IMG/VR virus record: IMGVR_UViG_3300030099_005838
Origin: a virus
Reading direction: 5' to 3' (one strand)
DNA length: 64,000 nt
This document shows, piece by piece, positions 9,001-51,637 of the stretch. The number at the start of each line of letters is the position of its first letter. The first letter of the stretch is position 1. The notes beneath the pieces are model-generated. The model searched no databases. It saw nothing but the letters and a program-made list of their open reading frames with translations, and was not told where the DNA came from. The translations under genes were made by a program, and so were the position numbers.

Positions 9001-9092
9001 AACACATTACAATTTATGACTGGTGGTGCTAAAAGATTGATTATCAATAATACACAAATAAGTGGTTCACAACACTCAACTGGTTCGTTTGG
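53..9092 (+). repeat. Nine dispersed direct copies of a ~35-nt repeat, consensus ATAAGTGGTTCAGCAACCTCAACYGGTTCGTTTGG (ISGSATSTGSFG)
   Basis: Copies start at 53, 476, 716, 1127, 1496, 4387, 4624, 4927 and 9058. Confidence 0.9.
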
Positions 9093-9621
9093 TGTTGTAC
9101 GGGCAGGTAATGGTGGTCCTCATGACCCTTCTTATCAATTTGGTGGTAACAGCGACGGTTTCTTCCACGATATATCTGCACCAGGTGAAGGTATTAAGTT
9201 AATGGTAAATAATGCAAATGAAGCATTGTTTGCAAATGGTGGTGACTTCCATGCTGATGGTGATGTTATTTCAAACTCGTCAACAATATCCGATTCTGTA
9301 TTTAAAACAGATGTAACAACGATAAGTTCTGCAGTAAACAAAGTTAAACAGCTAAGAGGTGTCAGTTTTAAATGGTTAAAAGGAAAAAGATCTGGTTCAG
9401 CTGATCTAGGTGTTATTGCACAAGAGGTTGAACCAGTATTACCTGAGATTGTTAAAACAAGACCACTACCGTTATGGCAAGATAAAGACCCGGAAATATC
9501 TGGTTCTTTTAAAACAGTTGATTACGAAAAATTAACTGCAGTCTTAATAGAAAGTGTTAAAGAACAACAAACAAAATTAGAACAACTTGAAGCGGAAATA
9601 GAAAAGTTGAAAGGTGGATAA
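3094..9621 (+). CDS. Long tail fibre (2175 aa) with C-terminal peptidase S74 intramolecular chaperone domain
   Basis: About 17 GNVGIGxxxP repeats; C-terminal SD..FKTDV...V..LRGVSFKW...GVIAQEVE.VLPEIV...VDYEKL..VLIESVKEQ followed by a coiled coil is the S74 signature. Confidence 0.9.
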   Translation: MAITTKKLIAEEYVVSSSVTLMTQSFASGSTVFGDSLDDTHRMTGSLFVSGGISTDGSAGGTATFKGTSAQSTLNLQTSVSNFVVGLSNSSGRLDLRPGGSTALTVINSGNVGIGNTSPGAKLTIGGSSSSGLHDIRLENSSAQIKIGVAGGGSDIVSSAVAGDFIISNVTGGTKSILFGIGTSEHMRVDHSGNIGIGQSSPSHPLDVAGVIRTTGTGTNSSVRLNNTTSSTGNEWQLYSYNNGDFSIYETSDRLYIKSNGNIGIGETSPDQKLHIKAATQMRLERASVASYDTLIDNLVTGDTADLTFQAQTSDTGFLFQSKNSSGTQINALAINEAGKVGIGTTNPDASLHISSSVGSSTSSLHIEGSGSSVVAVDGTQGRLFSITDELSGSLFSANTISGLPVIEAFSDNKVTLGPFSKPITVTSTGNISGSATSTGSFGSLVVADKVQGNLVASGNITTGGQILSPGGSNIALNPNTGLVTIANNLQLSGYVQAAGNLVSTGANAKISGSSTSTGSFGNVFVRDEIEITDSNTAICEGNNNSVRLKTNNGYIEIGPQNSTLAHIYTDRNQGFFFNRAIGVHNNKIYVGDFGSEIITIDPDVSGGSPKISGSASSTGSFGKVSVGTANPKFAHLNVEGDIALGTYAANMNRRIGLQRSDGGGWSNTPHITFSTDGGADASIKFSVIDSGVAGYADAVVIDKSGNVGIGETSPSVPLHVSGDGGASDPLATMLLESTSNHGGLVINAPASKQTHLRFQNNGSLKWQIRSPFHDGTNPDSLRIYSWTYGGDVMVFKNDGNVGIGTNNPVQKLHLHGGSMYMQTGQNITWNNGDVQIGAISGFHFRIQTYTGSSLTEKMRVTSGGNVGINTSSPSAKLHVSGAASTTATLIEGRTNGNVPILHIKDKADMFVAMFEGQRAGDTGAVVSIYHNPTTSQETNRTMLNFQMNDDGDNRTTYAQLFSGIDDHTDGTEDGNLQIKTVENGTLTEQMTINSTGVGIGETSPSFPLDVVKSANTGDPLTQATAYQLGIRNSNGNSGAATSIAFGHETFDFSAFISALRTSSGNHPTADLTFGARPSDNATFVERMRIVGASGNVGIGENSPSAKLQIKGGGITVSGSNDTSPIQAMLIKTSAASSQGLIGVEGNTAGAFITGTVARAMVVASSASGTALQLGAAGSVGLTMLSNGDIGINDTSPSFKLDVNGTGRFTGNVALSGDNAQLSIGHTGETHWGTGFDILEVGHSMALFCETADGADRNAFVANNLYADGDGLKRHYTDQTVSILLRAGFIAFRTDASGTAGAVFTPSERMRITEDGNVGIGTTSPVGLLTLYDPASGDNKLRFQNSTTGVTTSDGSRIGLNGAELFINNIESSNIKIYTGSTQTQGITIDSSGKVGIGITSPTGKLQVAGDIVIAQGSKLKEPDGNAYISFDSSYHITGSSAGDIVFDIDNNGNETNSFLRITKDNQATELMRVQENGNVGIGTNNPDVKFHVFDSSALSVEFESSTGNVDLTINSGTDGAVEKSSILLQANSSNKWEILKTTSDNFQIYDYGRSAGVLDIISNGNMGLMADGGNVGIGTTSPDTKLHLADSSDVYLTLESTHASTPEEAAIKYSNSSTSANYWWAGLNQSDDYSLAYGTSFSGANTRFLVTETGNVGIGVTDPDSALEVKSSDDTFLKVSTGNDTFHARIKASISNDTPMQMTGISGHAWMKQRGGDGEVTFLTNGGNERMRIDGSGNVGIGTTNPGATLDILGPSDGVNLRLSDVAGNSTTKEARIGVRHYTEAEEDTALMYAQSGNGTSAVYIGGGTGVMNAVELIGFVTAATDTTLSGTTRMVIDSGGKVGINHDSPSAVLEVKGQTGVSSTALITHGLVQMKTTHNDSSELRHQFSMGGASDPGSYNIYQGNASTIGVHLDAGDDSFFLNSVGIGGAPGHTGLDVSAGHISVDTAFSIKLDGPTGGDSISSPSSNTLQFMTGGAKRLIINNTQISGSQHSTGSFGVVRAGNGGPHDPSYQFGGNSDGFFHDISAPGEGIKLMVNNANEALFANGGDFHADGDVISNSSTISDSVFKTDVTTISSAVNKVKQLRGVSFKWLKGKRSGSADLGVIAQEVEPVLPEIVKTRPLPLWQDKDPEISGSFKTVDYEKLTAVLIESVKEQQTKLEQLEAEIEKLKGG
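3427..8882 (+). repeat. Dispersed direct repeat GTCGGCATCGG (VGIG) inside the 2175-aa fibre gene
   Basis: Exact copies at 3427, 4114, 5215, 6382, 7045, 7276, 7531, 7819, 8311; ATCGGCATCGG at 3676 and 3880; near-matches at 5497, 5692, 6085, 8062, 8623, 8872. Confidence 0.9.
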
Positions 9622-11488: not shown

Positions 11489-13996
11489 ATGGCAGAGAGA
11501 ATAGTCAGTCCAGGTGTATTTACTCGTGAAAGGGATTTATCTTTCTTACCAACTGGTGTAGCAAATATTGACGCAGTAATTGTAGGTCCAACTCTAAAAG
11601 GGCCTTCTTTTGTACCGACTCAAGTTACATCAATGACAGAGTTTGAAAGTGTGTTCGGTTCTTTTTCGAGTGATATCTATACACCATATACCGTTAATGA
11701 ATACCTACGATCAGCCGGTTCGGTTAAAGTAGTGAAAGTAGGATATTTAGGTGGTTACAAAGTTTCAGGTTTTAATTTAGTTGTATCACAATCTGAAGCA
11801 CCAGGAAGACATCCAAATATGGTAGTTGCAACATTTTTACCAGCAATAAATAATGTTGGTGGTTCATTAAGTGGTTCTTTAGAACATACTGATACGGGTG
11901 GTAATCGGCGTGCACACGGGTCTGCAAGTAAATTCGATCTCACTATAAACGGTACAAATGCAACCGCAAGTTTAAGTAATTTAACAATACTGGAATCAGG
12001 CGGAGGCACTACGTCTAACTTTTTTGCAGAACAGATACCCGATATAGCTACGGGAAAGAAGATTGGTTCTACTGATGCTCCAGCTTACATATACAAACAT
12101 TTCAGAAGTAATATAGCTGATTTGAATAGTCTTATCACACCATCAGGTAGTTTAAGAATAGAAAACTTCTCTGTCGCAAGTGGATATGACTTTACGTCAG
12201 GCACGGAAACTATAACTGAAAATAATAACAGTATTGATATTACTATAACAGGTAATAGTGATGCCACAAATGCTAGAACACCTTACATTCAAGATCAGAA
12301 TGGGACTAATTTATTCAAAATTTATACCAGAGCCGATGGTACTGAGACAAATAATCATTACGTTATGATTCGTGATGTTAAAAAGCCATCTAATTCTAAT
12401 TCAAGTCCTGAGTTTGCTGAATTCGGATTACAACTGTATGATTTAAGTGCAAATCTTATGGAATCATTCAACAAATTGAATTTAGATCCTGATTCACCTA
12501 ATTTCATTGCAAAAGTAATTGGTGACCAATTTCAGAAAGTTGATAATGAAGGTAATGTGACAATGTATGGAAATTATCCTAATCTTGCAAGACATATCAG
12601 AATCGGTGATTATGATGAGGAAGCATTTAAGTCAAATAAGACTTCACAGCCAATGGGATTTGCTGCTATATTAGATCCAGTCAAATCCTCTGCCCTAATC
12701 CAAGTTCCTACCGCTTCTTTTTCACTAAAACAGGTGGATTTCAGACAGGATGTGAATCAGTATTTAGAAGAAGCTCCTTATGGGTTTAAGATAGATGAAA
12801 GATTTCACGACGAATCATCACTTCTTGCTAATAGAGCACTTATGGCTCCAATACCTAAGACTGAGAGTGTAGGTGGTAATGTTGCATTCAGTCTATTGAA
12901 TATGAAAGGATTTGGAAGTGCAACGACATCTCCAAGTGATACAACTCTTACAGCTGAGAATTCAAATTGGGCTACTGAGTCAATATTTTTGAGTGTATCA
13001 TCATCTGTTAAACAGATGAAGTTTGCAGTTCCATTTCAACATGGATTTGATGGTATAGATCCTGCAAGAGCTCTCAATACTGGTAATGCAATAACATCTG
13101 CTAATTCAATGGGATTTGATTGTTCAACAACAACCGCTAGTGGTTCTGTCGCCTACAAAAGAGCAATTAACGCAGTATCGAATCCAGATGAAATAGATAT
13201 AAATATGTTAGTGACACCAGGTATGGTACATAGTTTACACTCACCCGTAACAAATCATGCTATCAATAAAATTGAAAGTCGTGGTGATGCATTTTATGTG
13301 ATGGATGGTTCAGGATATAGTGCAAATGTAAATACCGCAGTGAACGATGTCGCAACATTGGATACCAATTTTGTAGCTAGTTATTATCCTTGGGTTAAGA
13401 TAGATGATCCAGGCAGGGCTGGTAATATGGTTTGGGTTCCGCCTTCAGTTGTAATCCCTGGTGTGATAGCATTTACCGATAGGGTAGCACATGAATGGTT
13501 CGCACCTGCTGGTTTAAATAGAGGTGGATTATCTAGTGTAAGGATGGCCAAAAAGAAATTAACTCACACCGATAGGGATACACTCTATGAAGGAAGAGTT
13601 AATCCAATCGCAACATTTCCAGGTCAGGGGGTTGTGGTATTTGGACAAAAGACACTACAGGCTAAACCATCTGCTTTAGATAGAATCAATGTAAGAAGAT
13701 TGTTGATTAGACTGAAGAAGTTCATCGCCTCATCAAGTAGATTCTTAGTATTCGAACAAAATGATTCATCTACAAGATCCAGATTCTTAAATATTGTAAA
13801 TCCATTTTTGGAATCAGTACAAGCAAATAGTGGTTTGAGTGCATTCAAAGTTGTTATGGATGATTCGAATAATACTCCAGACGTAATTGATAGAAATCAA
13901 TTAGTAGGACAAATATTCATTCAACCAACAAGAACTGCAGAGTTTATTGTACTTGACTTTACAGTATTACCAACTGGTGCAGCATTTCCTGAATAA
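11489..13996 (+). CDS. Contractile tail sheath protein (T4 gp18-like)
   Basis: N-terminal SPGVFTRERDLS; C-terminal YYPWV..., WFAPAGLNRG, GQKTLQ...SALDRINVRRLL, PTRTAEFIVLDF. Confidence 0.95.
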   Translation: MAERIVSPGVFTRERDLSFLPTGVANIDAVIVGPTLKGPSFVPTQVTSMTEFESVFGSFSSDIYTPYTVNEYLRSAGSVKVVKVGYLGGYKVSGFNLVVSQSEAPGRHPNMVVATFLPAINNVGGSLSGSLEHTDTGGNRRAHGSASKFDLTINGTNATASLSNLTILESGGGTTSNFFAEQIPDIATGKKIGSTDAPAYIYKHFRSNIADLNSLITPSGSLRIENFSVASGYDFTSGTETITENNNSIDITITGNSDATNARTPYIQDQNGTNLFKIYTRADGTETNNHYVMIRDVKKPSNSNSSPEFAEFGLQLYDLSANLMESFNKLNLDPDSPNFIAKVIGDQFQKVDNEGNVTMYGNYPNLARHIRIGDYDEEAFKSNKTSQPMGFAAILDPVKSSALIQVPTASFSLKQVDFRQDVNQYLEEAPYGFKIDERFHDESSLLANRALMAPIPKTESVGGNVAFSLLNMKGFGSATTSPSDTTLTAENSNWATESIFLSVSSSVKQMKFAVPFQHGFDGIDPARALNTGNAITSANSMGFDCSTTTASGSVAYKRAINAVSNPDEIDINMLVTPGMVHSLHSPVTNHAINKIESRGDAFYVMDGSGYSANVNTAVNDVATLDTNFVASYYPWVKIDDPGRAGNMVWVPPSVVIPGVIAFTDRVAHEWFAPAGLNRGGLSSVRMAKKKLTHTDRDTLYEGRVNPIATFPGQGVVVFGQKTLQAKPSALDRINVRRLLIRLKKFIASSSRFLVFEQNDSSTRSRFLNIVNPFLESVQANSGLSAFKVVMDDSNNTPDVIDRNQLVGQIFIQPTRTAEFIVLDFTVLPTGAAFPE

Positions 13997-29446: not shown

Positions 29447-29847
29447 TGAGAACACAATTACTATGTACATTTGCAATTAGGTCTCGTATCGAAGACATCA
29501 CTAGAATTATTATGGAATGTAATGATATACTATACAATAAAATATATGTATTTGAAAATCTAAATGACGATAGTCAATTAATCTGTACATATAATGTTTC
29601 ATATGAGGATGGACATTTATCAGAGGATATTCCTAACACTATATCTTTACATAGAAAGAAGCAAACAAACACATTGTATTCAATTAATGCACTTAATGAG
29701 GTTATCAGAAGTCTAAACAATGGTGTGTTAGATAAAAAGTTTCCTGTACCTTGGGAACAATACAGTAATACCTTACTACTTACAAACGAAAATGGCCTCA
29801 ATAAAATCCCAACAAAACTTTATCGAATTATTAACACGAAAGCGTAA
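29446..29847 (+). CDS. Conserved phage hypothetical protein
   Basis: MRTQLLCTF...TYNV...NTISLHRKKQTNTLYSINALNEVI; clean ORF coupled to the previous stop. Confidence 0.7.
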   Translation: MRTQLLCTFAIRSRIEDITRIIMECNDILYNKIYVFENLNDDSQLICTYNVSYEDGHLSEDIPNTISLHRKKQTNTLYSINALNEVIRSLNNGVLDKKFPVPWEQYSNTLLLTNENGLNKIPTKLYRIINTKA

Positions 29848-29853
29848 AAAAAA

Positions 29854-29883
29854 TTGTATTTAACTAAAAAGTTATATACTTAT
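29854..29883 (+). promoter_or_regulatory. Putative promoter TTGTAT-N17-TACTTAT upstream of ssb
   Basis: Recurrent motif with conserved spacing. Confidence 0.55.
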
Positions 29884-29943
29884 TATTGGTTACGATAGTA
29901 ACTTAAAATTAACAATTAACAAATTATATTAGGAGAATAACAA

Positions 29944-30702
29944 ATGGATATTAATTCTATTCGCAAGCGTCTTAATCAATTACAGACAACAAATAATAGA
30001 ACATCAAACTTATGGAAACCACAACCAGGTAAACAGGTGATTCGTGTGGTGCCTTACTTACACAATAAAGATAATCCTTTTATCGAATTGTTTTTTCATT
30101 TTGGTTTGAATAATAAATCCTATCTTTCACCTATTTCATTTGGTCGTCCAGACCCAATTGAAGAGTTTGCTCAGAAATTAAAACAGAGTGGTAACAGAGA
30201 AGAGTATCAGATGGCTCGTAAGTTAGAAGCTAAGATGAGAACTTTTGCACCTGTTATTGTTCGTGGTGAGGAAACGCAAGGTGTTCGTTTTTGGGGATTT
30301 GGTAAAACTGTTTACCAAGAACTACTTTCAGTAATCGCAGATCCAGACTATGGTGATATTACCGATCCTGTAAATGGTCGTGATGTATCAGTAGAGTTTA
30401 TAACTGCTGAAGAGAGTGGTGCTTCTTTTCCAAAGACATCAATTCGTGTAAAACCAAATCAAACTCCAATCGTTAGTGATAAAGCTCAACTTGAAAACAT
30501 ATTGGAAAACCAAAAAGACATTACTGAATTATATCAGGAAAGGTCTTACGAAGAACTTACAGAAGTTCTGAATGAATGGTTGAATCCTGATGATTCCTCT
30601 GTTGAAGAATCAAAAGAAGAAACCGTTGCTCCAGCTTCTCTAGCAACATCTACTTCTGTAGAAGATGCTAGTTCCGCATTTGACGAGTTATTCAGTAAGT
30701 AA
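29944..30702 (+). CDS. Single-stranded DNA-binding protein (T4 gp32-like)
   Basis: WKP..G...IR..P......PF.E..FH, GVRFWGFGKTVY, DITDP..GRD, acidic tail ending FDELF. Confidence 0.9.
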   Translation: MDINSIRKRLNQLQTTNNRTSNLWKPQPGKQVIRVVPYLHNKDNPFIELFFHFGLNNKSYLSPISFGRPDPIEEFAQKLKQSGNREEYQMARKLEAKMRTFAPVIVRGEETQGVRFWGFGKTVYQELLSVIADPDYGDITDPVNGRDVSVEFITAEESGASFPKTSIRVKPNQTPIVSDKAQLENILENQKDITELYQERSYEELTEVLNEWLNPDDSSVEESKEETVAPASLATSTSVEDASSAFDELFSK

Positions 30703-33076: not shown

Positions 33077-34424
33077 AAATTTTACTCAGTATGGGCCTTC
33101 ATTTCAATCTAAGATAATATCATCATTATTATCAGACAACAAATTTATACAAACTATAAGTGATATATTAGAATCAAAATACTTCGATTCTGATGCTAAT
33201 AAATGGTTATCAAAAGAAATCAGTAAATACTTTATGGAGTTTAGAAAAGCTCCTACATTAGAAGTATTGAAAGTAAAAATCAATCAGATGGATGATGAGA
33301 TTCTGAAGGTATCAGTTGTGGAGAATTTGAAAGATTCTTGGAGAAATTTAGAAGCTACTGATTTGGATTTTGTAAAGCAAGAAACACTTTCGTTCTGTAA
33401 GAATCAGGTTTTGAAAGAAGCTATTACAGATGCTGTAGATTTGTTAGAACAGAAGAAGTATGATGATATAAAAGTTATTATAGATTCTGCTATGAAGGCT
33501 GGAAGTGAAAGAGATTTAGGACATGATTACATCATATCCTTAGAGGATAGACTTACAGAATCAGTTAGAGAAACCAAACCTACTCCGTGGGATGCTGTTA
33601 CAAACGTAATGGATGGTGGATTGGCTGGTGGTGAGTTAGGTGTATTAGTTGCACCTGCTGGTATTGGTAAGACTTGGTGTTTACAAGCTTTAGGTGCTCA
33701 CTTAGTCAGAGAAGGTAAAACAGTAGTTCATTACACTTTAGAGTTAAATGAGTCTTATGTTGGTTTAAGATATGATACTGTATTTAGTGGAACACCAACT
33801 GCTAACATAAAGTTCTATCAAGAAGATGTACAAAAAGTTATTGATGGTTTAAAGGGTAAATTAATAATCAAATACTATCCTACTCGTTCTGCGTCTGTTA
33901 ATACCCTATCTTCACATCTTAAACAAATGGAGATACAGGAAATAAAACCTGATGCTGTAATAGTTGATTATGCTGACATCCTGAAACCAACTACATTCTA
34001 TAAAGAGAAGAGACATGCAACTGGTGAGACTTATGAAAATCTAAGAGGACTTGCTGGTGAATTTGATATTCCAATATGGACTGCTTCACAGGCTAATCGT
34101 AGTTCGTTAGAAGAAGATGTAATCGATGCCACTAAAGTATCAGAGGATTATAGTAAGGTTATGACAGCGGATTTTGTTATGTCAGTTAGTCGTAAGGTTG
34201 AAGATAAAATTGCAAATACAGGTAGGTTTCATGTGATTAAAAATAGATTTGGTGTAGATGGTATTACCTTTCCAGCTAACATCAATACTAATACAGGTTT
34301 GATTGAAGTGCATGAGGCATCAACTGTTGGTGGAAAACAAGTACAAGGTAAAATGGATAATTCGGAAGAATACCTAAGAAAAACTTTATCACAAAAGTAT
34401 AAAGATTTGGCCGGATTCGAATAG
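33066..34424 (+). CDS. dnaB: Replicative DNA helicase (DnaB/gp41-like)
   Basis: Walker A APAGIGKT, YTLEL, VIVDYAD, WTASQANR, IKNRFG.DG. Confidence 0.92.
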   Translation: MVSENFTQYGPSFQSKIISSLLSDNKFIQTISDILESKYFDSDANKWLSKEISKYFMEFRKAPTLEVLKVKINQMDDEILKVSVVENLKDSWRNLEATDLDFVKQETLSFCKNQVLKEAITDAVDLLEQKKYDDIKVIIDSAMKAGSERDLGHDYIISLEDRLTESVRETKPTPWDAVTNVMDGGLAGGELGVLVAPAGIGKTWCLQALGAHLVREGKTVVHYTLELNESYVGLRYDTVFSGTPTANIKFYQEDVQKVIDGLKGKLIIKYYPTRSASVNTLSSHLKQMEIQEIKPDAVIVDYADILKPTTFYKEKRHATGETYENLRGLAGEFDIPIWTASQANRSSLEEDVIDATKVSEDYSKVMTADFVMSVSRKVEDKIANTGRFHVIKNRFGVDGITFPANINTNTGLIEVHEASTVGGKQVQGKMDNSEEYLRKTLSQKYKDLAGFE

Positions 34425-34481
34425 GAATAGATAGTATATATAATAATTATAAATAGTTAAATTTGTTACTGAGGAGTTACT

Positions 34482-36491
34482 ATGGAAAAATTTAAGTTGT
34501 CAGACAACTTTGTTGCAAAATATAAAAGAAAGAAAGCACCTTTTGGTTTTAATGGATTGGGTGAGTTGGTTTATATGAGAACCTACTCAAGAATCAAAGA
34601 GAACGGAAAGAATGAAAGATGGTGGGAAACGGTTCAAAGGGTTGTGGAAGGAACTTATAATATGCAAATGAATTGGATTGAATCACATCAATTAGGGTGG
34701 AATCCGTGGCAGGCACAGAGGTCAGCTCAAGATATGTATGAGCGTATTTTTAACATGAAATTCTTACCTCCTGGTCGTGGACTGTGGGCGATGGGAACGC
34801 CAATCACAGAAGAAAAAGGTTTATATGCCGCCCTAAACAATTGTGCTTTCGTATCTACGAAAACACTAAAGGAAGATTATGCTAAACCTTTCTGTTTCCT
34901 TATGGATGCTAGTATGTTAGGTGTCGGTGTTGGATTTGATACCAAAGGTGCTGGAGAAATAGTAATCAAAGGTATACAAAAAGACAGAGATGAGCAGATA
35001 TATGAAATACCAGATACACGTGAGGGGTGGGTTGAATCTCTTAAATTATTATTAGAGAGTTACTTTCATGGACAGGCTCCAATCAAATTTGACTATTCAA
35101 AGATAAGAGGTGCAGGTGAACCCATTAGCGGGTTTGGTGGTGTTGCAAGTGGGCATGAACCATTATTAGAGGTACATGAAAGTATCAGAAAAGTATTAGA
35201 GGATAATAGTGGAGAACCAATTTCAATTACCACAATTGTAGACATAATGAACCTAATTGGTAAATGTGTTGTTGCTGGTAATGTTAGAAGGACTGCGGAA
35301 ATTGTATTTGGTGAGCCGGACTCAGAAGAATATTTGGATTTAAAAAACTATAAAGTAAATAAACACAGAGAGACATATGGATGGACATCTAATAATAGTA
35401 TATTCGCTGAATTGGGTATGGATTATACAGAAGCTGCCAAACGAATTGTGGATAATGGTGAGCCTGGATTTGCGTGGTTAGACAATATGAGAAAGTATTC
35501 TCGTATGAAGAATGGTGGTGATAACAAAGACCATAGAGTCGCTGGTGGAAATCCTTGTTTAGAACAATCATTGGAGAGTTATGAATTATGTTGTTTGGTA
35601 GAAACATTTCCAAACAACCATGATAGTTTTGAGGATTATGCAAGAACATTAAAATATGCATATCTATATGCGAAAACAGTTACATTGGGAAGAACCCATT
35701 GGGCGGACACCAATAGAGTTATGTTAAGAAACAGAAGAATTGGTTGTTCAGTAAGTGGTGTTGCTCAGTTTATTACAAATAGAGGTTTAGGAGAATTAAA
35801 GAATTGGTTAAATGGTGGATATGATGTTATACAGGAATGGGATAAACAATATTCAGATTGGTTTGCCGTTCCTAAGTCAATTAAGACAACATCCGTCAAA
35901 CCATCAGGTACAGTATCACTACTTGCAGGAGCGACTCCAGGATTACATTACCCTGAGAGTCGTTTTTACATTAGGAGAATAAGGTTATCCAAACATTCAG
36001 AATTGATTGGACCGATGGAAAAATCAGGTTATAAAATAGAACCAGCTTTTGGTTCAGAGGATACAACAATGGTTGTTGAAGTGCCGGTTGATGTGGGCGA
36101 GGGTATAAGAACTGCGGCTGAACTATCCATTTGGGAACAATTCAGTTTAGCCGCATTCTTACAAAGACATTGGGCTGACAATCAGGTAAGTTGTACCGTG
36201 ACATTTGATCCTGAAACAGAAGCAAATCAAATCGCTCCTTGTCTGAATTACTATCAGTATCATTTGAAAGGTATTAGTTTGTTACCACGACATGACTATG
36301 GTGCTTATCAACAGATGCCTTATGAGGCAATAGATGAGGAGACTTACAAAAAAGAAGTGAGTAAGTTGAGTAAACTATCTTTTGGTGTAATAAAAAATGA
36401 AGAAGCAGAAATCGATAAATTTTGTAACAATGATTCATGTGAAGTTATCCCAATGACAGGTGATAATGATGACCAAGATTACGCAAACTAA
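34482..36491 (+). CDS. nrdJ: Class II (adenosylcobalamin-dependent) ribonucleotide reductase, monomeric RTPR type
   Basis: PPGRGLW, LNNC, GVGVGFD, VAGNVRR.AE, NPC.EQ.L, TSVKPSGT and a C-terminal Cys pair (FCNNDSC). Confidence 0.93.
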   Translation: MEKFKLSDNFVAKYKRKKAPFGFNGLGELVYMRTYSRIKENGKNERWWETVQRVVEGTYNMQMNWIESHQLGWNPWQAQRSAQDMYERIFNMKFLPPGRGLWAMGTPITEEKGLYAALNNCAFVSTKTLKEDYAKPFCFLMDASMLGVGVGFDTKGAGEIVIKGIQKDRDEQIYEIPDTREGWVESLKLLLESYFHGQAPIKFDYSKIRGAGEPISGFGGVASGHEPLLEVHESIRKVLEDNSGEPISITTIVDIMNLIGKCVVAGNVRRTAEIVFGEPDSEEYLDLKNYKVNKHRETYGWTSNNSIFAELGMDYTEAAKRIVDNGEPGFAWLDNMRKYSRMKNGGDNKDHRVAGGNPCLEQSLESYELCCLVETFPNNHDSFEDYARTLKYAYLYAKTVTLGRTHWADTNRVMLRNRRIGCSVSGVAQFITNRGLGELKNWLNGGYDVIQEWDKQYSDWFAVPKSIKTTSVKPSGTVSLLAGATPGLHYPESRFYIRRIRLSKHSELIGPMEKSGYKIEPAFGSEDTTMVVEVPVDVGEGIRTAAELSIWEQFSLAAFLQRHWADNQVSCTVTFDPETEANQIAPCLNYYQYHLKGISLLPRHDYGAYQQMPYEAIDEETYKKEVSKLSKLSFGVIKNEEAEIDKFCNNDSCEVIPMTGDNDDQDYAN

Positions 36492-36545
36492 ATAATGAAA
36501 AACGGTTATAACAATCAAAAATATTCATATACTTACAAAAAGCGG

Positions 36546-36579
36546 ACAGGCAGACGGCACACCTGTAGAAAAATGTGCC
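36546..36579 (+). promoter_or_regulatory. Candidate H-type pseudoknot in the 5' leader of the TonB-dependent receptor gene
   Basis: ACAGG(36546-50)/CCTGT(36562-66) and GGCACA(36556-61)/TGTGCC(36574-79); A-rich loop 3 AGAAAAA. Confidence 0.55.
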
Positions 36580-36609
36580 TTTTCATTAATGAACAACAAG
36601 GAGATTACT

Positions 36610-39357
36610 ATGAGATATCGTAATCTAATCCTTTCAACAATAATGATGGTTGGAGTTGTCTTTGGACAAGTCGTAACCGGATTTGTTGGTGAAGGTGATA
36701 AACCACTTGTAGGAGCAAATGTTGTAGTAGAAGGTACGACTAAAGGTGGAGTTACCGATAGTGAGGGTAAATTCACTATCGATACTGGTGCTGGTACTTT
36801 TGATATAACAGCATCCTACATTGGATACATAACCCAAACTAAATCTGTTAGTGTTGGGGATATAGTGTCCAGCGTCAGTTTCAACTTAGAAATTGATGTT
36901 GTTGCACTATCGGCTTTAGAGGTTTTGGCTTCTCGAGCTGATGAAAAAACACCTGTTGCTTACACTACGGTGACTAAGGAAGAGATGGAAATTCGTCTTG
37001 GTTCACAAGATATTCCAATGTCTCTGAATATGACACCATCAGTATATGCGACTGGTCAAGGTGGTGGTGCGGGTGATGCTCGTATCAATGTTCGTGGATT
37101 CAACCAAAGAAACGTAGCCGTCATGATAAATGGTGTTCCCCAAAATGATATGGAGAACGGATGGGTGTATTGGTCTAATTGGGATGGGGTAGGAGATGCT
37201 ACCTCTTCAATTCAGATGCAAAGAGGTCTATCAGCCGTTAATCTCGCTACACCATCAATTGGTGGAACGATGAACATAATAACGGATCCTGCCTCTCTTG
37301 AAAAGGGTGGTAAGTTCAAACAAGAAACTGGTAATAACGGTTTCTTAAAAACAACCTTAAATTACAATACAGGTTTGATTGGTGATAAACTAGCATTAAG
37401 TGGAACAATAGTTCGTAAAACTGGTGATGGTTTAATCGATGGAACTTGGACAGATGCATGGGCCTACTATGTTGGTGGTTCATACGCTGTCAGTAATGAC
37501 CAAAGGTTTGAGTTATATGCAATTGGTGCTCCACAGAGACATGGACAGAACCTATACAAACAAAACATAGCTACTTACTCTCAAGAGTTAGCTGGTGATA
37601 TTGATGAGTATGATGTTTCAGCATTTGCAGATAGTGCAAAATTCGAAACTGAAGCTGGTAGGTTCTTCAACCAAAATTGGAACACTATTGATGAATCGTA
37701 CAAAGGCCAACAGTATTGGTATATGTATGGAGAAGGTGGATTATTCGGTGGTGGACTACAAGATCGTAAGATTGGTGGTTTACTGAACGAAAGAGAAAAC
37801 TTCTTTCATAAACCATTAGTCAACCTTAACCATTTCTATGATGTAAATGACCAAGTTAGAATAAGTTCTATCTTGTATTGGTCAGGTGGTTCTGGTGGTG
37901 GTACTGGTACTTACGGAAGTGTATCAAGACAACCCGCAGTTGAGGGCTCACCTTGGTATGCAAGTTCACCTTGGACATGGGATTGGAATGCTGAGATTGC
38001 TCAGAACTCTGCTAATGTAGATTCAACATGGTCAGAAACCGAAAACCGTTCTACAGGTATACTTCGTAATTCAATCAATAGGCAAAATACCTATGGTTTA
38101 ATTTCCAAACTAAACTATGATGTCAACGATGACCTGGAAGTTCAAGTTGGTATTGATTGGAGAACGGCTGGTATTGAACATGCTAGAGAAGTTCGTGATT
38201 TACTCGGTGGAGACTACTATGTAGACTATGCCGATGACAATGCACCAGATGGAAAGAAAGTTGGTTTAGGTGATATCATTGCCTACCATAACAATACTAC
38301 AGTTGATTGGTTCGGTGCTTTCGTACAAGGTAAATACGACATTCAGAAGTTCAACCTTTATGGTATGGGTGGGGTATCCACAATTGGATATTCCTATCAA
38401 GACCATTTTTCTGTTGGGAAGGAACTTGTAGAAGCTCCATCCATTACGACCTTTCAAGTAAAGGGTGGTGGTGTATTTAATCTTGATGATAGATTATCAG
38501 CATTTGCTAATCTTGGGTATGTTCAAAAACCACCAATTTTGGATAACGTGATTGATTATGATGGTAATGTTGCTACCAATCCTGATAATGAGAAGTTCAC
38601 ATCAGCTGAGGTTGGTGGTTCATACAGAAGTGACAAAGTTGCCGTAAAAGGTAGTTACTACAATACACAATGGAAAGATAGAAACCTAACTCGTAATGTG
38701 GAGACAGGTGCTGGTGATTCAGGTGATACTGATATCATTTATCTTACTGGTGTAAACCAAAGTCATACTGGTGTTGAGGTAGAAGCTAAAGTTGCCCTAC
38801 ACGAGATGGTTGATGTAGACTTTGCTTTCAGTAAAGGTAATTGGTTCTTCGATGGAGATGCCAAAGGTGATTACTTAGAACAAGAGTATAATGAAGATGG
38901 TCAGATTATCGGACAGATGACAACCGAATATGTCTATGCTCTTAATAATCTAAAAGTTGGTGATATGCCACAAACTGCTTATGTCGGTGGTCTAACACTA
39001 AAACCAATCAAAGGAATGAACATTCAAGGATTGTTAAAAGTCTATGATGACAATTACGCTGATTGGTCACCAGAATCTCGTGAGGTGACAGGTGATGAGG
39101 ATAGAGCACAAGTTTGGAAAGCTCCTGGCTATTCTAAATTGGACCTACACTTATCATACAAACTTCCAGAGATTGCAGGTTATGATGTGACCTTACATGG
39201 TCATGTCTTTAATGCACTTGATAATATATACGTTCAAGATGCTACAGATAACAGTAAGTACAATGGGTACGGTGATAAACTTCACTTAGCTCATAATGCT
39301 GAAGTATTCTTGGGAACACCAAGATACTACAACATAGGACTTAGTGTTAATTTCTAA
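36610..39357 (+). CDS. TonB-dependent outer-membrane receptor with N-terminal carboxypeptidase-regulatory-like domain
   Basis: Signal peptide MRYRNLILSTIMMVGVVFG; PLVGANVVVEGT..G..TD..G.F.I; plug INVRGF.QRNVAVMINGVP; beta-barrel ending IGLSVNF. ATG 36610 follows SD AAGGAG (track starts at 36589). Confidence 0.93.
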   Translation: MRYRNLILSTIMMVGVVFGQVVTGFVGEGDKPLVGANVVVEGTTKGGVTDSEGKFTIDTGAGTFDITASYIGYITQTKSVSVGDIVSSVSFNLEIDVVALSALEVLASRADEKTPVAYTTVTKEEMEIRLGSQDIPMSLNMTPSVYATGQGGGAGDARINVRGFNQRNVAVMINGVPQNDMENGWVYWSNWDGVGDATSSIQMQRGLSAVNLATPSIGGTMNIITDPASLEKGGKFKQETGNNGFLKTTLNYNTGLIGDKLALSGTIVRKTGDGLIDGTWTDAWAYYVGGSYAVSNDQRFELYAIGAPQRHGQNLYKQNIATYSQELAGDIDEYDVSAFADSAKFETEAGRFFNQNWNTIDESYKGQQYWYMYGEGGLFGGGLQDRKIGGLLNERENFFHKPLVNLNHFYDVNDQVRISSILYWSGGSGGGTGTYGSVSRQPAVEGSPWYASSPWTWDWNAEIAQNSANVDSTWSETENRSTGILRNSINRQNTYGLISKLNYDVNDDLEVQVGIDWRTAGIEHAREVRDLLGGDYYVDYADDNAPDGKKVGLGDIIAYHNNTTVDWFGAFVQGKYDIQKFNLYGMGGVSTIGYSYQDHFSVGKELVEAPSITTFQVKGGGVFNLDDRLSAFANLGYVQKPPILDNVIDYDGNVATNPDNEKFTSAEVGGSYRSDKVAVKGSYYNTQWKDRNLTRNVETGAGDSGDTDIIYLTGVNQSHTGVEVEAKVALHEMVDVDFAFSKGNWFFDGDAKGDYLEQEYNEDGQIIGQMTTEYVYALNNLKVGDMPQTAYVGGLTLKPIKGMNIQGLLKVYDDNYADWSPESREVTGDEDRAQVWKAPGYSKLDLHLSYKLPEIAGYDVTLHGHVFNALDNIYVQDATDNSKYNGYGDKLHLAHNAEVFLGTPRYYNIGLSVNF

Positions 39358-39368
39358 AATGATGACTT

Positions 39369-39395
39369 GGGGGATTGAAATATATCCCCCTTTTT
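39369..39395 (+). terminator. Rho-independent terminator after the receptor gene
   Basis: GGGGGAT-N8-ATCCCCC followed by TTTTT. Confidence 0.85.
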
Positions 39396-39408
39396 ATCAA
39401 AAAAATAC

Positions 39409-39437
39409 TTGACTTATTCATATTTTATTCGTAGCTT
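39409..39437 (+). promoter_or_regulatory. Sigma70-type (early) promoter TTGACT-N17-TAGCTT
   Basis: Canonical spacing, A-rich upstream; identical hexamers at 45700. Confidence 0.75.
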
Positions 39438-39469
39438 TAAACATGGAAAATGGGGATTTTACAACCTAA

Positions 39470-41968
39470 ATGTATCAGAATATTTATTTCGACCAAAGAA
39501 AACAACAAGTTCATATATGGGATGATGAAAAAGGTTATTTCGTACTACCATACAGAAAATATGCTTATGTGAAAGATAGGCTTGGTACTTACATATCTTT
39601 ATATGGAGATAAACTTAAAAAAATTAAAAAGTGGGATAACGAAACACCGAATCTATTCGAATCAGATGTACCACCTGAAACCAGAGTTTTAGTAGACCAA
39701 TACACAGATAGTGAAGAGACATCGAAAGGTCATGTGATTATGACAATTGATATTGAGGTTGAAGTTACCGATGGTTTTCCAGACATACATAAAGCGGATA
39801 ATAAAATAACTTCTATTGCTATACACTCTTCTTCAGATGACACCTATTATACCTTGGTACTAGACCCAAAAGATAATCTAAAATTAAAATCATATGACAA
39901 TGTTGAGATAGAAACATTTGAGAATGAGTTTGAACTGTTACAAAAATTTTATATGATTTACCTAAAGATAAAACCAACCATAATAACAGGCTGGAACATA
40001 GATGGTTTTGATATGCCTTATCTTTATAAAAGAAGTTCTAACATTGTTGGTAGTAACGTTGCTGATTTACTTTCACCAATTAGAATAGTCAATTGGAATA
40101 AACATAGGAAGAGGTATATGTTTGCTGGTGTTAGTTGTTTAGACTATCTGGCACTGTACAAACTTTTCACCTACACACAATTATCATCTTATAGATTGGA
40201 TGCTGTTGCTGAGTTTGAGTTGAGTGAGAATAAGATAGAGTATACTGGTACACTAAATGATTTATATGAGAATGATATAGATAAGTTTGTTGAATATAAT
40301 ATACATGATGTTCGTCTTGTCAAAAGATTAAATGATAAATTAGATTTTATCGAAATGGCTCGTGGTGTATGTCACGTAGGTCATGTTCCTTATGAAGATG
40401 TTTACTTTTCTTCTCGCTACTTAGAAGGTGCAATATTAGTCTACCTAAGAAAAATAGGTGTAGTTGCTCCTAACAAACCACCAAGACCTGAAAGGTTAGA
40501 GGGTGGAGATAAGTTCACAGGTGCTTATGTACAACCACCACAAAAGGGTAAACACGATTGGGTATTCGATTTAGATATTACTTCTATGTATCCATCAGTT
40601 ATTATGTCTTTAAATATCTCACCTGAAACAAAGATTGGTAAACTCGCTGGTTGGGATGCTGAGGAGTTTATAAGGGGAACTAAAAAGACATATACGTTGT
40701 TATCCAATGGTAGAGAAAAGGGGAGATTAACAGAAACAGAGTTAAAAGATTTCTTCGACAAAAATAATGTTTCGGTATCTTCTAATGGTGTATTATATAG
40801 AAATGATAAGCAAGGACTGATACCTGCACTACTATCGAAATGGTTTGATACTCGTGTAGAATACAGAAAGTTGATGAAGAAGTTCGGTGATGCAGGTGAT
40901 GAACAAAAGTATAGTTACTTCAAAAGTCGTCAGTTGATTCAAAAGGTTGTACTGAATTCGTTATACGGTGTGTTAGGTTTATCTGTGTTTAGATTCTATG
41001 ATTTAGATAATGCAGAAGCTACTACACTTACAGGTCAAGAACTAATCAAATTTACAAAGAAGATTGGTAACTTTTTTTACAACAATGCGTTAGAAACTAA
41101 TGATGAAGATTATTGTATTTACATAGATACTGATTCAGTATTCTATTCGGCTTTACCAATTGTACAAAAAAGATTTCCCAATAAGGAATTTACAGAAACC
41201 AGAATGAGTAAGATTATTTTGGATGTGGCTGATGAGATGCAGACATATCTGAATAAGTCTTATGATTATTTCGGTAAGAAGTTTCTAAACTTAGACAAAC
41301 ATAGGTTTGAGATAAAGCAGGAATTGATTGCTAAGAGTGGTTTGTTTATCGTAAAGAAACGATACGGCATGAAGATTATCAATGACAATGGAGTAAAGGT
41401 AAACAAACTGCATGTAAAAGGTTTGGACTTAGTTCGTAGCAACTTTCCAAAGGCTATGGGGCAGTTGTTAAAAGATGTGTTAGAAGATATACTTGCAAAC
41501 GTACCCAAAGATAAGATTGATGAAAGAATTATAAACTTCAAAGAGTCAATGAAATTAGTTGATTTTGATAAGATAGCGATGCCCACTGGTGTTAGAAATC
41601 TAAAAAAGTATAGTGCCGGAAAGAGTGGTAACTTCACTCAGTTTGCAAAAGGTTCACCAGCTCACGTTAAGGCAGCGATAAACTACAATGATTTAATGAA
41701 ACACTTTGGGGTATATGGAAAATACGAACCTATATCAGAAGCAGAAAAGATAAAATGGGTTTATCTAAAACAGAATGAATTAGGTTTAGAGTCTTGTGGA
41801 TATAAGGGTTACGATGATCCTCCACAAATAATAGACTTCATAAAAACTTTTATAGACCATAAGAAAATGTATTCACAAATGCTTGAGAAAAAGATAACAC
41901 TTTTTTATGAAACTTTAAAATGGAATGAACCAGTTAACAAAAAAACATCTATGGAAAGATTTTTTTAG
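39470..41968 (+). CDS. polB: Family-B DNA polymerase with 3'-5' exonuclease (gp43-like)
   Basis: DIEV, GWN...FD..Y, YNI.DV, FDLDITSMYPS, K..LNSLYG, YIDTDS, KKRY. Confidence 0.96.
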   Translation: MYQNIYFDQRKQQVHIWDDEKGYFVLPYRKYAYVKDRLGTYISLYGDKLKKIKKWDNETPNLFESDVPPETRVLVDQYTDSEETSKGHVIMTIDIEVEVTDGFPDIHKADNKITSIAIHSSSDDTYYTLVLDPKDNLKLKSYDNVEIETFENEFELLQKFYMIYLKIKPTIITGWNIDGFDMPYLYKRSSNIVGSNVADLLSPIRIVNWNKHRKRYMFAGVSCLDYLALYKLFTYTQLSSYRLDAVAEFELSENKIEYTGTLNDLYENDIDKFVEYNIHDVRLVKRLNDKLDFIEMARGVCHVGHVPYEDVYFSSRYLEGAILVYLRKIGVVAPNKPPRPERLEGGDKFTGAYVQPPQKGKHDWVFDLDITSMYPSVIMSLNISPETKIGKLAGWDAEEFIRGTKKTYTLLSNGREKGRLTETELKDFFDKNNVSVSSNGVLYRNDKQGLIPALLSKWFDTRVEYRKLMKKFGDAGDEQKYSYFKSRQLIQKVVLNSLYGVLGLSVFRFYDLDNAEATTLTGQELIKFTKKIGNFFYNNALETNDEDYCIYIDTDSVFYSALPIVQKRFPNKEFTETRMSKIILDVADEMQTYLNKSYDYFGKKFLNLDKHRFEIKQELIAKSGLFIVKKRYGMKIINDNGVKVNKLHVKGLDLVRSNFPKAMGQLLKDVLEDILANVPKDKIDERIINFKESMKLVDFDKIAMPTGVRNLKKYSAGKSGNFTQFAKGSPAHVKAAINYNDLMKHFGVYGKYEPISEAEKIKWVYLKQNELGLESCGYKGYDDPPQIIDFIKTFIDHKKMYSQMLEKKITLFYETLKWNEPVNKKTSMERFF

Positions 41969-48657: not shown

Positions 48658-48908
48658 GTTTGAATTTTAGGGATGATTTAATCAAAGCTAGTGAGAAGCA
48701 TTTTGAGGCCCACATCGAAAAGCATCGAATAAATGTTGAAATATTACTTGAAAATGCAGCTGGTGTTGCCGAACATCCGGATATAATGGAAACTATAGAA
48801 AAAGAGTTAGCTATTATATCAGATTATGAAGATAAGCTGGAAGTTTTGAGAAAGTATTTTACTAGTGGTTGGGTAGCTGGAAAAAAGAAAGGGGTATTAA
48901 ATGGCTAA
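48654..48908 (+). CDS. Conserved phage hypothetical protein
   Basis: H..NVE..L....GV.EHPDI.E.IE.EL..I..Y.DKL. Confidence 0.65.
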   Translation: MSLNFRDDLIKASEKHFEAHIEKHRINVEILLENAAGVAEHPDIMETIEKELAIISDYEDKLEVLRKYFTSGWVAGKKKGVLNG

Positions 48909-50292
48909 AAAGAAAATACTACTCTTATCAGATGATTTAAGAATGCATAGTGGTATCGCAACTATGTCTCGTACATTTGTTTTAGGCACTTTACAGCATT
49001 ACGATTGGGTTCAGGTTGGTGGTGCTATTAAACATCCTGAAGAAGGTAAGATTGTCGATATGAATGAATCAGTTAGAAAAGACACCGGTATAAAAGATGC
49101 GAGTTTAAGAGTTTATCCAATATCAGGTTATGGGAATCAAGAATTGTTACGAAATGTAATTGATAGAGAAAATCCAGATGCGATTTTACATTATACAGAT
49201 CCAAGATTTTGGGAGTGGTTATATCAAATGGAGCATGAGATAAGGCAACATATCCCTATATTTTACTATAATATTTGGGATGATTTACCCTATCCAATGT
49301 GGAATGAACCTTTTTATGAGAGTTGTGATTTGATTATGAACATTTCGAAACAGACAGTTAATATTGTGGATAATGTTTGCAAGGATAAACCACGCACCAA
49401 AACAGATAATACTTACATACCACATGGAATAAACTCAGATAATTTTTATCCAGTAGACAAAAATCATAAAGACTGGGGTGATTTTTTAAGTTTCAAGCGA
49501 AATGCTACTCATAATAAAGATTATGATTTTATAGTTTTTTGGAATAACAGAAACATTCGTAGGAAACTGCCAGGTGATGTTATTATGGCGTATAAAACTT
49601 TTTGTGATATGTTACCAAAAGAAAAATCAGAAAAATGTTTACTGATTATGCATACTGCACCAAGGGATGAAAATGGAACAGACTTACCAGCAGTTGTCGA
49701 AGCTGTATGTTCTGATTACGATGTGATATTCTCAACTGCAAAACTCAATGATAAAGACTTATGTTTTCTGTACAACGTTGCAGATGTAACAATTAATATG
49801 GCGTCTAATGAAGGATTTGGATTAGGAACTTGTGAATCATTAATGTGTGGTACACCAATATCAGTTAATGTTACTGGTGGATTACAAGACCAATGTGGAT
49901 TCAAATACAAGGGTAAATTACTAACTTACGAAGATTACAGTTGGGTACATTCATTGCATGACGCTAAGAAGTGGAAAGATAACTCTGATTTGACTTGGGG
50001 TGAATGGGCTAAACCAGTTTGGCCTTCTAATAGAAGTTTACAGGGTTCAATACCGACACCTTACATTTTTGACGATAGACCACGATTTGAAGACTTCGCA
50101 GATGTCATTAAGCAATGGTATGATATGGATTCGGAGGAGAGAAAGAGATGTGGTATGAAAGGGCATGAGTTTGTTATGAGTGATGATGCTATGATGAGTG
50201 CAAAGGCTATGTCTAATCTATTCATAGAACATATGGATAAAGGCATGGAAGAGTGGAAACCAAGAAAACGTTTTACAATGATAGAGGCTTAA
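48901..50292 (+). CDS. GT-B glycosyltransferase (GT4-like)
   Basis: LSDD....SG.A, YIPHG, NRNIRRK, LYN.ADV....S.EGFGL...E. Confidence 0.88.
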   Translation: MAKKKILLLSDDLRMHSGIATMSRTFVLGTLQHYDWVQVGGAIKHPEEGKIVDMNESVRKDTGIKDASLRVYPISGYGNQELLRNVIDRENPDAILHYTDPRFWEWLYQMEHEIRQHIPIFYYNIWDDLPYPMWNEPFYESCDLIMNISKQTVNIVDNVCKDKPRTKTDNTYIPHGINSDNFYPVDKNHKDWGDFLSFKRNATHNKDYDFIVFWNNRNIRRKLPGDVIMAYKTFCDMLPKEKSEKCLLIMHTAPRDENGTDLPAVVEAVCSDYDVIFSTAKLNDKDLCFLYNVADVTINMASNEGFGLGTCESLMCGTPISVNVTGGLQDQCGFKYKGKLLTYEDYSWVHSLHDAKKWKDNSDLTWGEWAKPVWPSNRSLQGSIPTPYIFDDRPRFEDFADVIKQWYDMDSEERKRCGMKGHEFVMSDDAMMSAKAMSNLFIEHMDKGMEEWKPRKRFTMIEA

Positions 50293-50293
50293 G

Positions 50294-51637
50294 ATGAAAC
50301 CATTAGTACTATTTACAGGTCCGGTTGTCACAAGAAGTGGTTATGGGGCACACGCAAGAGACTTAGTTAAGTCTTTGATAAAGATGGATAAATTCGAAAT
50401 ACATATTAATTCTTTGAGATGGGGAAACACACCCTGGAATGCTCTTAATCTTCAAAATGAAGAAGATAAACTTATCTTAGATAGGATATTGAAAGAACCG
50501 AATCTTCCAAGAGAACCAGATATTCATATTCAAGTCAGTATACCATCTGAGTTTACACCACTTGCAAAATATAATATTGGTGTTACAGCAGGTATGGAAA
50601 ATACTGCACCCGTACCATCTTGGGTTGATGGGATGAATAAGATGGATATGGTGATTTGTACTTCTAACTTTACTAAGAACACATTTAAAAAAGTTGTCTA
50701 TGAACAGATAGATAAAAATACAAATCAGAAAACAGGTGAGTTGAGAGTAGTTAAACCTATGGAAGTTTTGTTTGAGGGTGTCGATACCAACATATATAAA
50801 CAAACAAAGGAGTTCTCAAAAGATTTAGTAGATGAAATGAATATGATTAAAGAAAAGTTTTGTTTTCTTTATGTAGGACATTGGTTGCAGGGTGATTTGG
50901 GACAAGATAGAAAAGATACAGGTATGTTGGTTAAAACATTCCTCGAAAAATTTAAAAATATGAAAAGACCACCAGCTTTGATTATGAAAACTAGTTCGGC
51001 GACATTTTCCGTAATAGATAGAAGAGATATTTTAAAAAGAATAGATATGATAAAGAAATCTGTTAAAGGTAATTTACCACCGGTTTATTTATTACATGGA
51101 GATTTAGAAGACGAAGAGATGAATCAGTTATATAATCACCCAAAAGTTAAAGTAATGGTTACCTTTACAAAAGGTGAAGGATTTGGTCGTCCTCTATTAG
51201 AAGCCTCTATTGCGGCAAAACCCATAATAGCCTCTAATTGGAGTGGGCACTTAGATTTTCTAAATAAAAAACATAGTGTGCTATTACCAGGTAATCTAAC
51301 AAAAGTCCATAAATCTGCTTTACCGAAAGATTACTTAGTTGAAAATGCACAATGGTTTACCGTAAACTATCAATATGCCGCACAGATTATGATGGATATG
51401 TTTAAAAATTATAGAAAGTATACATTCAATGCTAAGAAACAATCAATGGTAAATAAAGGTAAATTTAGTTTAGAAAGTATGTCTAAAGTCTTTGAAAATA
51501 TATTGAATAAATACTTACCAAAATTTGAACAACAACCTCAGCCAGTCGATTTGAAACTACCTGATTTGAAATTAGTTGCAGATAAAGCACCGTTAAGAGC
51601 TGATGATATGAAACTTCCAAAATTAAAGAGGTCGTAA
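50294..51637 (+). CDS. GT-B glycosyltransferase (GT4-like)
   Basis: TRSGYG.H.R, FLYVGHW, RKD.G, LYNHPKVK......GEGFGRPLLEA...IASNWSGHLDF. Confidence 0.88.
   Translation: MKPLVLFTGPVVTRSGYGAHARDLVKSLIKMDKFEIHINSLRWGNTPWNALNLQNEEDKLILDRILKEPNLPREPDIHIQVSIPSEFTPLAKYNIGVTAGMENTAPVPSWVDGMNKMDMVICTSNFTKNTFKKVVYEQIDKNTNQKTGELRVVKPMEVLFEGVDTNIYKQTKEFSKDLVDEMNMIKEKFCFLYVGHWLQGDLGQDRKDTGMLVKTFLEKFKNMKRPPALIMKTSSATFSVIDRRDILKRIDMIKKSVKGNLPPVYLLHGDLEDEEMNQLYNHPKVKVMVTFTKGEGFGRPLLEASIAAKPIIASNWSGHLDFLNKKHSVLLPGNLTKVHKSALPKDYLVENAQWFTVNYQYAAQIMMDMFKNYRKYTFNAKKQSMVNKGKFSLESMSKVFENILNKYLPKFEQQPQPVDLKLPDLKLVADKAPLRADDMKLPKLKRS

Follow-up and report, generated by a model that had tools for sequence, protein, structure and literature searches.

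A TonB-dependent receptor gene of Marinimicrobia origin behind a B12-dependent ribonucleotide reductase in marine myophages

When a gene for an outer-membrane receptor lies directly behind a gene for a cobalamin-requiring enzyme, the question arises whether the receptor supplies the enzyme. Such a pair is found in the virus record IMGVR_UViG_3300030099_005838 of IMG/VR, of which a stretch of 64,000 nucleotides, referred to here as the window, was analysed. On its + strand, a monomeric class II ribonucleotide reductase (RNR) of the RTPR type (669 aa, 34482-36491) is followed by a TonB-dependent receptor (TBDR) of 915 aa (36610-39357), which thus sits between the RNR and the downstream family B DNA polymerase PolB (39470-41968, + strand; PF00136, PF03104). 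The reductase is recognized by TIGR02505, against which it scores 365.8 bits with a cut-off of 340, as well as by PF17975 and PF21995, and it is 76-95% identical to the RNRs of related phage contigs. RTPR requires adenosylcobalamin, and an initial annotation had suggested that the phage installs its own importer in the outer membrane to supply the reductase. Of this proposal, the intact and selectively maintained transporter gene is supported, whereas cobalamin as its cargo is not. We think that the TBDR is probably, if by no means certainly, a host-derived, functional and conditionally dispensable outer-membrane importer of a nutrient.

The receptor gene and its phage setting

The frame of the TBDR is open from 36589, which corresponds to 922 aa, and its true start is most likely the ATG at 36610, which gives 915 aa, aligns with the starts of the relatives and is preceded at a distance of 6 nt by a Shine-Dalgarno (SD) sequence, AAGGAG (36598-36603, + strand). 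An (A/G)GGAG element is kept at this position in the relatives. The N-terminus, as read from the sequence, is MRYRNLILSTIMMVGVVFG and represents a predicted Sec signal peptide (aa 1-19) with cleavage before Q20. It is followed by an N-terminal extension of the CarboxypepD_reg type (aa 21-95; the CarbopepD_reg_2 match covers aa 35-107 of the 922-aa frame), by the putative TonB box LEVLASRADE, which was assigned from its position and pattern (aa 103-112, nt 36916-36945, + strand), by a Plug domain (aa 119-260; PF07715 with 51.7 bits, cut-off 23.9), and by a barrel of 22 strands (aa 261-915). The protein ends with GLSVNF, and the terminal Phe would be the residue that addresses it to the barrel assembly machinery (BAM).

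An AF2 model, built from a 49-sequence alignment, reached a pLDDT of 86 and a pTM of 0.81 and comprises the extension, a plug with pLDDT values of 80-94, and 22 strands after residue 260 according to its DSSP string. In a Foldseek search, this model matched solved TonB-dependent transporters with E values of 1e-34 to 1e-27, including Fiu, PqqU, FhuA, YncD and FecA (E 1e-34 to 1e-29, target-normalised TM 0.71-0.80). Plug, 22-strand barrel, TonB box, signal peptide and C-terminal aromatic residue, by which the TonB-dependent transporter superfamily is recognized, were thus all found, and Pfam, the model and the sequence itself confirm the initial annotation in that the receptor of about 915 aa is intact from signal peptide and N-terminal extension through plug and barrel to the terminal Phe. 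Its view that the gene possesses a leader, an SD and a terminator of its own was also correct, as the leader contains a conserved pseudoknot and the AAGGAG, and behind the coding sequence there is a G/C hairpin with its T run.

The window belongs to a myophage with a T4-like replication region and a structural region, as judged from PHROGs and Pfam. A large protein search yielded more than 100 relatives of the TBDR with 79-99% identity, and all contexts of these that were inspected are phage, with the gene order gp32-UvsX-exo-DnaB-RTPR-TBDR-...-PolB. The same order was found in independent assemblies from ENA, JGI and Tara that are 120, 164 and 206 kb in size, and IMG/VR contains at least 338 contigs with a relative. 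RTPR is upstream of the TBDR in all of the fetched phage loci that reach upstream (86 phage loci were fetched), a few of which carry an insert of about 1 kb between the two genes. The TBDR is therefore flanked on both sides by phage genes, and recurrently so, in bona fide phage genomes, as is expected of an auxiliary gene.

Origin in Marinimicrobia and selection

Cellular relatives of the TBDR, which were sought in one genome per prokaryotic species, show 50-67% identity and come nearly all from metagenome-assembled genomes (MAGs) and single-amplified genomes (SAGs) of Marinimicrobia, also known as SAR406; no phage genes were found near these cellular relatives. Trees were calculated with FastTree (123 rows) and IQ-TREE (60 rows). 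The phage TBDRs form one clade with a stem of about 0.25 (FastTree 100, IQ-TREE SH-aLRT 100), and in both trees this clade is nested several nodes deep among the Marinimicrobia sequences, while its cellular sister group differs between the two. From this nesting we conclude that the phages obtained the gene from a Marinimicrobia host in a single capture, which also makes SAR406 their probable host. One TBDR inside the phage clade (L007, 986-3736) comes from a Marinimicrobia MAG. Its contig of 4.3 kb has neither knot nor RNR, and the neighbours of the receptor are a DegT aminotransferase and the beginning of a second TBDR; this copy could result from a transfer back to the cell or could belong to another phage type.

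In the cell, the orthologue is a stand-alone gene in a housekeeping synteny, with an SRAP peptidase upstream and, downstream on the opposite strand, an unknown protein, DnaG, CvpA and YqeY. These Marinimicrobia orthologues with the order CarboxypepD_reg-Plug-barrel (e.g. L009, from UBA2986) are 50-67% identical to the phage receptor over the full length and have the same architecture, TonB box and plug. Unlike the phage copies, they possess a longer loop 3, lie in the housekeeping synteny and lack the pseudoknot leader. The labels of several MAG bins (L006, L008, L014, L023 and L028) look wrong; L008, labelled ‘Winogradskyella’, is nearly identical to the Marinimicrobia UBA2986 (L009), and the TBDRs of bins labelled ‘Woeseiaceae’ and ‘Lentisphaeria’ fall within Marinimicrobia clades.

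The captured gene has been kept under purifying selection, with a pairwise dN/dS of 0.135 among the phage TBDRs (2941 pairs) compared to 0.133 among the cellular copies. The gene thereby combines an origin inside a cellular clade with purifying selection, as is typical of an auxiliary gene. Conservation extends to the parts that are needed for transport: LEVLASRADE shows no variation among 50 phage copies and is also the consensus of the hosts, phages and hosts are 92% identical in their plug consensus, and none of the loops has been removed in the phage TBDRs. As TonB box and plug are essentially unchanged, the same substrate as that of the host orthologue is to be expected.

Importer, surface protein or cobalamin receptor

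We propose that an ancestor of these large marine myophages captured a paralogue of about 915 aa from the TBDRs of its Marinimicrobia (SAR406) host, and that the captured gene would have been set behind RTPR as a self-contained unit of pseudoknot leader, SD, coding sequence and terminator. During infection, the receptor would presumably be exported by Sec, inserted by BAM by virtue of its terminal Phe and energised by the TonB of the host. It would import whatever its host orthologue imports and so raise the uptake capacity that is available for phage production.

Some observations weigh against this importer role. The fold search is generic, as the matches are only 11-14% identical and do not tell substrates apart, and the loop that is hypervariable in the hosts, loop 3, is specifically altered in the phage copies, which would fit a role at the cell surface as well. 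Moreover, not all close relatives possess the receptor. In a survey that was anchored on the RNR, 67 of its close relatives (86-95% identity) had enough sequence downstream; the TBDR was present in 58 of them and absent in 9, and at least five changes on the RNR tree are needed to explain the absences. In L325 (4400-4480) the TBDR was cleanly deleted via a CCAAGAA microhomology, so that the last 11 codons and the terminator remain, while the group of L338 (6990-7200), L339, L344 and L360 has retained the knot together with the SD and roughly a dozen codons from the start of the TBDR; L297, L323, L369 and L372 lack the TBDR without any relic. With nine of 67 relatives living without the receptor, any benefit that it confers must be conditional.

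The main rival explanation is a remodelling of the cell surface. The host orthologue would then serve as a phage receptor, and a phage-encoded copy with a shortened loop 3 would alter the receptor landscape, by which superinfecting phages could be excluded or the progeny could be spared adsorption to debris. We regard this as a serious possibility that nevertheless falls well short of being probable. It is based on loop 3, a predicted extracellular loop according to the DSSP string of the AF2 model (aa 437-482, nt 37918-38055, + strand), which is the part of the TBDR that has diverged most from the host, with a consensus agreement of 39%. In the hosts this loop is the most variable part of the protein (entropy 1.57), as would be expected of an epitope that is exposed to phages, whereas in the phage copies it is conserved (entropy 0.58) and 11 residues shorter. 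TBDRs are common phage receptors, such as FhuA for T5, and FhuA is among the fold matches mentioned above. In addition, receptor interference has been proposed for outer-membrane proteins of phages (preprint 10.64898/2026.10.24.761521). Against a remodelling it can be held that an extra variant leaves the host’s own receptors in place, and that the strongest constraint is found on TonB box and plug, for which exclusion by itself gives no reason. Nor is there evidence that any phage uses this TBDR as its receptor.

We consider it very unlikely that the TBDR takes up cobalamin or corrinoids for the B12-dependent RTPR next to it. The cofactor of RTPR, adenosylcobalamin, speaks for such a link, as does the observation that, wherever a phage locus with the TBDR extends far enough upstream, RTPR is the gene directly before it. 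Furthermore, RNR and TBDR travel as a block: their pairwise identities are correlated with r 0.52, in comparison to r 0.07-0.26 for either of them with DnaB or PolB (r 0.64 between DnaB and PolB), and their median identities are 0.86 and 0.81, respectively, versus 0.58 for PolB and 0.62 for DnaB. However, physical adjacency alone can explain this co-inheritance. The positional tie to the class II RNR that the initial annotation had noted is indeed present in most relatives, and the co-occurrence with nrdJ holds for the 58 close relatives that carry the TBDR but not for the other nine. The region between RNR and PolB is a variable hotspot, and the adjacency reflects joint inheritance as a block within it and not a demonstrated metabolic link.

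Several results led us to reject the cobalamin hypothesis. In bacteria, a cobalamin riboswitch is usual in the leaders of btuB genes, but neither the cobalamin riboswitch RF00174 nor any other Rfam family matched the leader of the phage TBDR at the Rfam gathering score, and the same was true at E <= 1 over 34300-36800. In NCBIfam, the BtuB models TIGR01779 and NF007926 gave no match to the TBDR at E <= 0.01; the best models were of the SusC and haem types, and these remained far below their cut-offs. Such likeness to BtuB as exists is generic, consisting of 36 bits over only the plug in a PDB profile search and of rank 30 in the Foldseek search. E. coli BtuB (PDB 1NQE, 2GSK) has the TonB-dependent plug-and-barrel fold in common with the phage TBDR, but it is a protein of 594 aa without N-terminal extension and is only 14% identical. 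The riboswitches of the hosts point in another direction: in five Marinimicrobia genomes, which contain 13-22 plug-domain receptors each, exactly one cobalamin riboswitch was found per genome, and in four of the five it precedes a different TBDR of about 688 aa with TonB-B12 as best family. The similarity of this protein to the phage TBDR is not significant (BLASTP E 0.008 over 101 residues). In the surroundings of the cellular orthologues, genes for B12, SusD or siderophore functions were not found. Finally, RTPR is retained in the nine relatives without TBDR, from which it is concluded that RTPR works without the receptor and that the receptor is accessory. A receptor beside a B12 enzyme, tempting as the inference may be, need not be a B12 receptor.

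Other cargoes could not be assigned either. The TBDR scores 52 bits against the SusC/RagA family TIGR04056 (cut-off 368), and this only with its N-terminal part; a SusD-like lipoprotein is found neither beside the phage copies, whose neighbours are RNR and PolB, nor beside the cellular copies, whose neighbours are SRAP and the unknown protein. For the haem-type family TIGR01786 the score is 45 bits (cut-off 324), and neither the phage nor the host copies have genes for iron uptake as neighbours. A histidine phosphatase occurs near the cellular orthologue in 11 loci and an S1/P1 nuclease, which was identified in one member, probably in 8. Only the housekeeping genes are conserved in the host synteny, however, and phosphatase and nuclease are too weak an indication to name a substrate. 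Foldseek and the PDB profile search yielded generic matches to TonB-dependent transporters alone, so that solved structures do not provide an assignment, and the contexts of the distant relatives P0123, P0127 and P0128 gave no clue, as their contigs are short or uninformative.

A chimeric assembly, contamination with host DNA or a functionless hitch-hiker in decay can practically be dismissed, since ENA, JGI and IMG/VR provide hundreds of independent contigs with both junctions, the phage copies bear a phage-specific leader and the frames are intact at the dN/dS given above; the TBDR does have the highest GC content in the window, and several of its relatives have been placed in MAG bins, but the MAG-binned contig L006, labelled ‘Flavobacteriales’ (72% hit), itself reads RNR-TBDR-PolB and is a mis-binned phage contig.

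TBDRs of phages are as such already known. A SusC-like TBDR has been described in the marine megaphage Mar_Mega_1 and in LR745206 and was read as an auxiliary uptake gene (PMC9723777). It is also of this type that the only convincing TBDR match in the viral structure library BFVD was found (UniProt A0A8D9FQQ5, E 3e-30). As in the present case, it is a full-length TBDR of an uncultured marine phage that is interpreted as an uptake gene. It belongs, however, to a different phage group (a megaphage of >600 kb) and to a different TBDR family, with 12% identity in the structure alignment and about 28% over the plug in tblastn, and neither an RTPR adjacency nor a knot leader has been described for it. 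A survey of huge phages, which covered 1,603 beta-barrel proteins and among them a 22-strand TBDR of Lak phages, reported that some of these proteins are transcribed in nature and proposed uptake or receptor interference as their roles (preprint 10.64898/2026.10.24.761521). The Lak TBDR is likewise a phage-encoded outer-membrane barrel that is related to host proteins, but that survey concerns phages of >200 kb and a Bacteroidota host, whereas here the contigs measure 120-206 kb, the donor is from the Marinimicrobia, the gene is near-core and it possesses a dedicated RNA leader. A paper on the present SAR406-linked lineage or its knot was not found in a literature search of incomplete coverage.

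If the receptor is indeed an importer, then one specific host importer has been kept working in phages over a long evolutionary time, and its cargo would thereby be marked as limiting for phage production in the oligotrophic ocean. The phages concerned are very abundant, globally distributed and uncultured marine myophages of 120-200 kb, and SAR406/Marinimicrobia, to which they are here assigned as their probable host, is one of the major phyla of the ocean, with few known links to viruses. The natural variants with and without TBDR and the RNA knot that occurs only in the phages offer handles for the cargo and its control.

Leader pseudoknot and flanking elements

The leader of the TBDR contains a conserved RNA motif of 38 nt (36542-36579, + strand) that consists of GCGG and an H-type pseudoknot of 34 nt and reads GCGG-ACAGG-CAGAC-GGCACA-CCUGU-AGAAAAA-UGUGCC. 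In its first helix, S1, 36546-36550 pair with 36562-36566, and in the second, S2, 36556-36561 pair with 36574-36579, with an A-rich loop 3 at 36567-36573. The pseudoknot precedes the TBDR in all phage loci, also in those in which an extra gene follows the RNR. Across these, 98.6% of the cells are paired and compensatory changes are seen in 5 of 11 pairs and in both helices, which is far above shuffled and slid controls. An occlusion of the SD by the pseudoknot is not obvious. There is one pseudoknot site in the window, and in IMG/VR all of the 103 occurrences that could be evaluated are followed by a TBDR start about 31 nt later, by which a general regulon element of the phage is ruled out. 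An inheritance from the host is ruled out as well, since neither the upstream regions of 59 cellular orthologues nor five host genomes contain the pseudoknot. The S2 hairpin was also considered as a conserved terminator of the RNR and rejected, as the T run behind it is not conserved.

The leader may represent a new cis-regulatory RNA, and candidate roles for its pseudoknot are those of an mRNA stabiliser, a protein operator or a riboswitch. In the T4 gene 32 operator, a pseudoknot at the 5' end precedes an A/U-rich stretch without structure that extends to the ribosome-binding site. The phage leader resembles it in layout, by its small H-type pseudoknot about 30-70 nt upstream of the start, by an A/U-rich spacer and by its occurrence in a T4-like phage that encodes gp32. 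It differs in that the gp32 leader of this phage has no such knot. That gp32 leader (29847-29943), which precedes the gp32 gene (29944-30702, + strand; matching the gp32 genes called in relatives by PF08804), contains a hairpin GGTTAC/GTAACT and then UUAA/AAUUAAC repeats that reach the SD, and recalls the operator region of T4 gene 32. A far-reaching view, which we hold to be rather improbable, would place the pseudoknot in a cis-regulatory RNA class that is new, where it would gate translation of the importer as a ligand-sensing switch or as the operator of a phage protein, for example gp32. In this view, RTPR and TBDR would form a mobile module of two genes that moves between divergent SAR406 phages and couples the supply of dNTPs to the uptake of a limiting nutrient, be it nucleotide-related or of another kind. 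Closer to the TBDR, a local hairpin (GAGAUUAC / GUAAUCU) at 36601-36626 could enclose the start codon, and a similar GAUUA...UAAUC complementarity occurs in several relatives.

At the other end of the gene, a scan identified an intrinsic terminator with a G5/C5 hairpin and a T run (39369-39395, hairpin 39369-39390, + strand). A hairpin of G5-6/C5-6 with a T run and with compensatory changes is visible by eye in the about 22 related phage loci that were viewed; a scripted criterion, judged too strict, flagged 2 of 63 loci. Right after the terminator, a -35-like CTTGAC(T) is conserved in most related loci, here as TTGACT within 39396-39470 before PolB, which suggests a promoter of the host type that may be used early.

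The composition of the gene had been described as richer in GC and in C-ending codons than that of its neighbours. Its GC content of 0.394 is in fact the highest of the 47 genes in the window, and its third-position C of 0.153 is also at the top (z 2.6), but the GC excess is due to codon position 1 and the GC3 of 0.27 is ordinary (rank 16 in the window). At two-fold pyrimidine codons, the TBDR has a C/(C+T) of 0.365, the second of 39 genes. Phage TBDR and host orthologues are both richer in C-ending two-fold codons than the genes next to them, which may be a hint at high expression.

The ~1-kb insert in locus L110 (4960-5946) is a gene of 328 aa that resembles glutamine synthetase (PF00120, PF03951) and lies between RTPR and the knot-TBDR unit. 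It is also present in L108, L295, L306, L311 and L271, and thus constitutes a further host-like metabolic gene in the same hotspot. All long open reading frames of the window are on the + strand. PHROGs and Pfam identified tail fibres at 2-9621 and the tail sheath at 11489-13996, and, apart from PolB, also RecA/UvsX, a 5'-3' exonuclease and a DnaB-like helicase. Two glycosyltransferase genes were found by PHROGs at 48901-51637.

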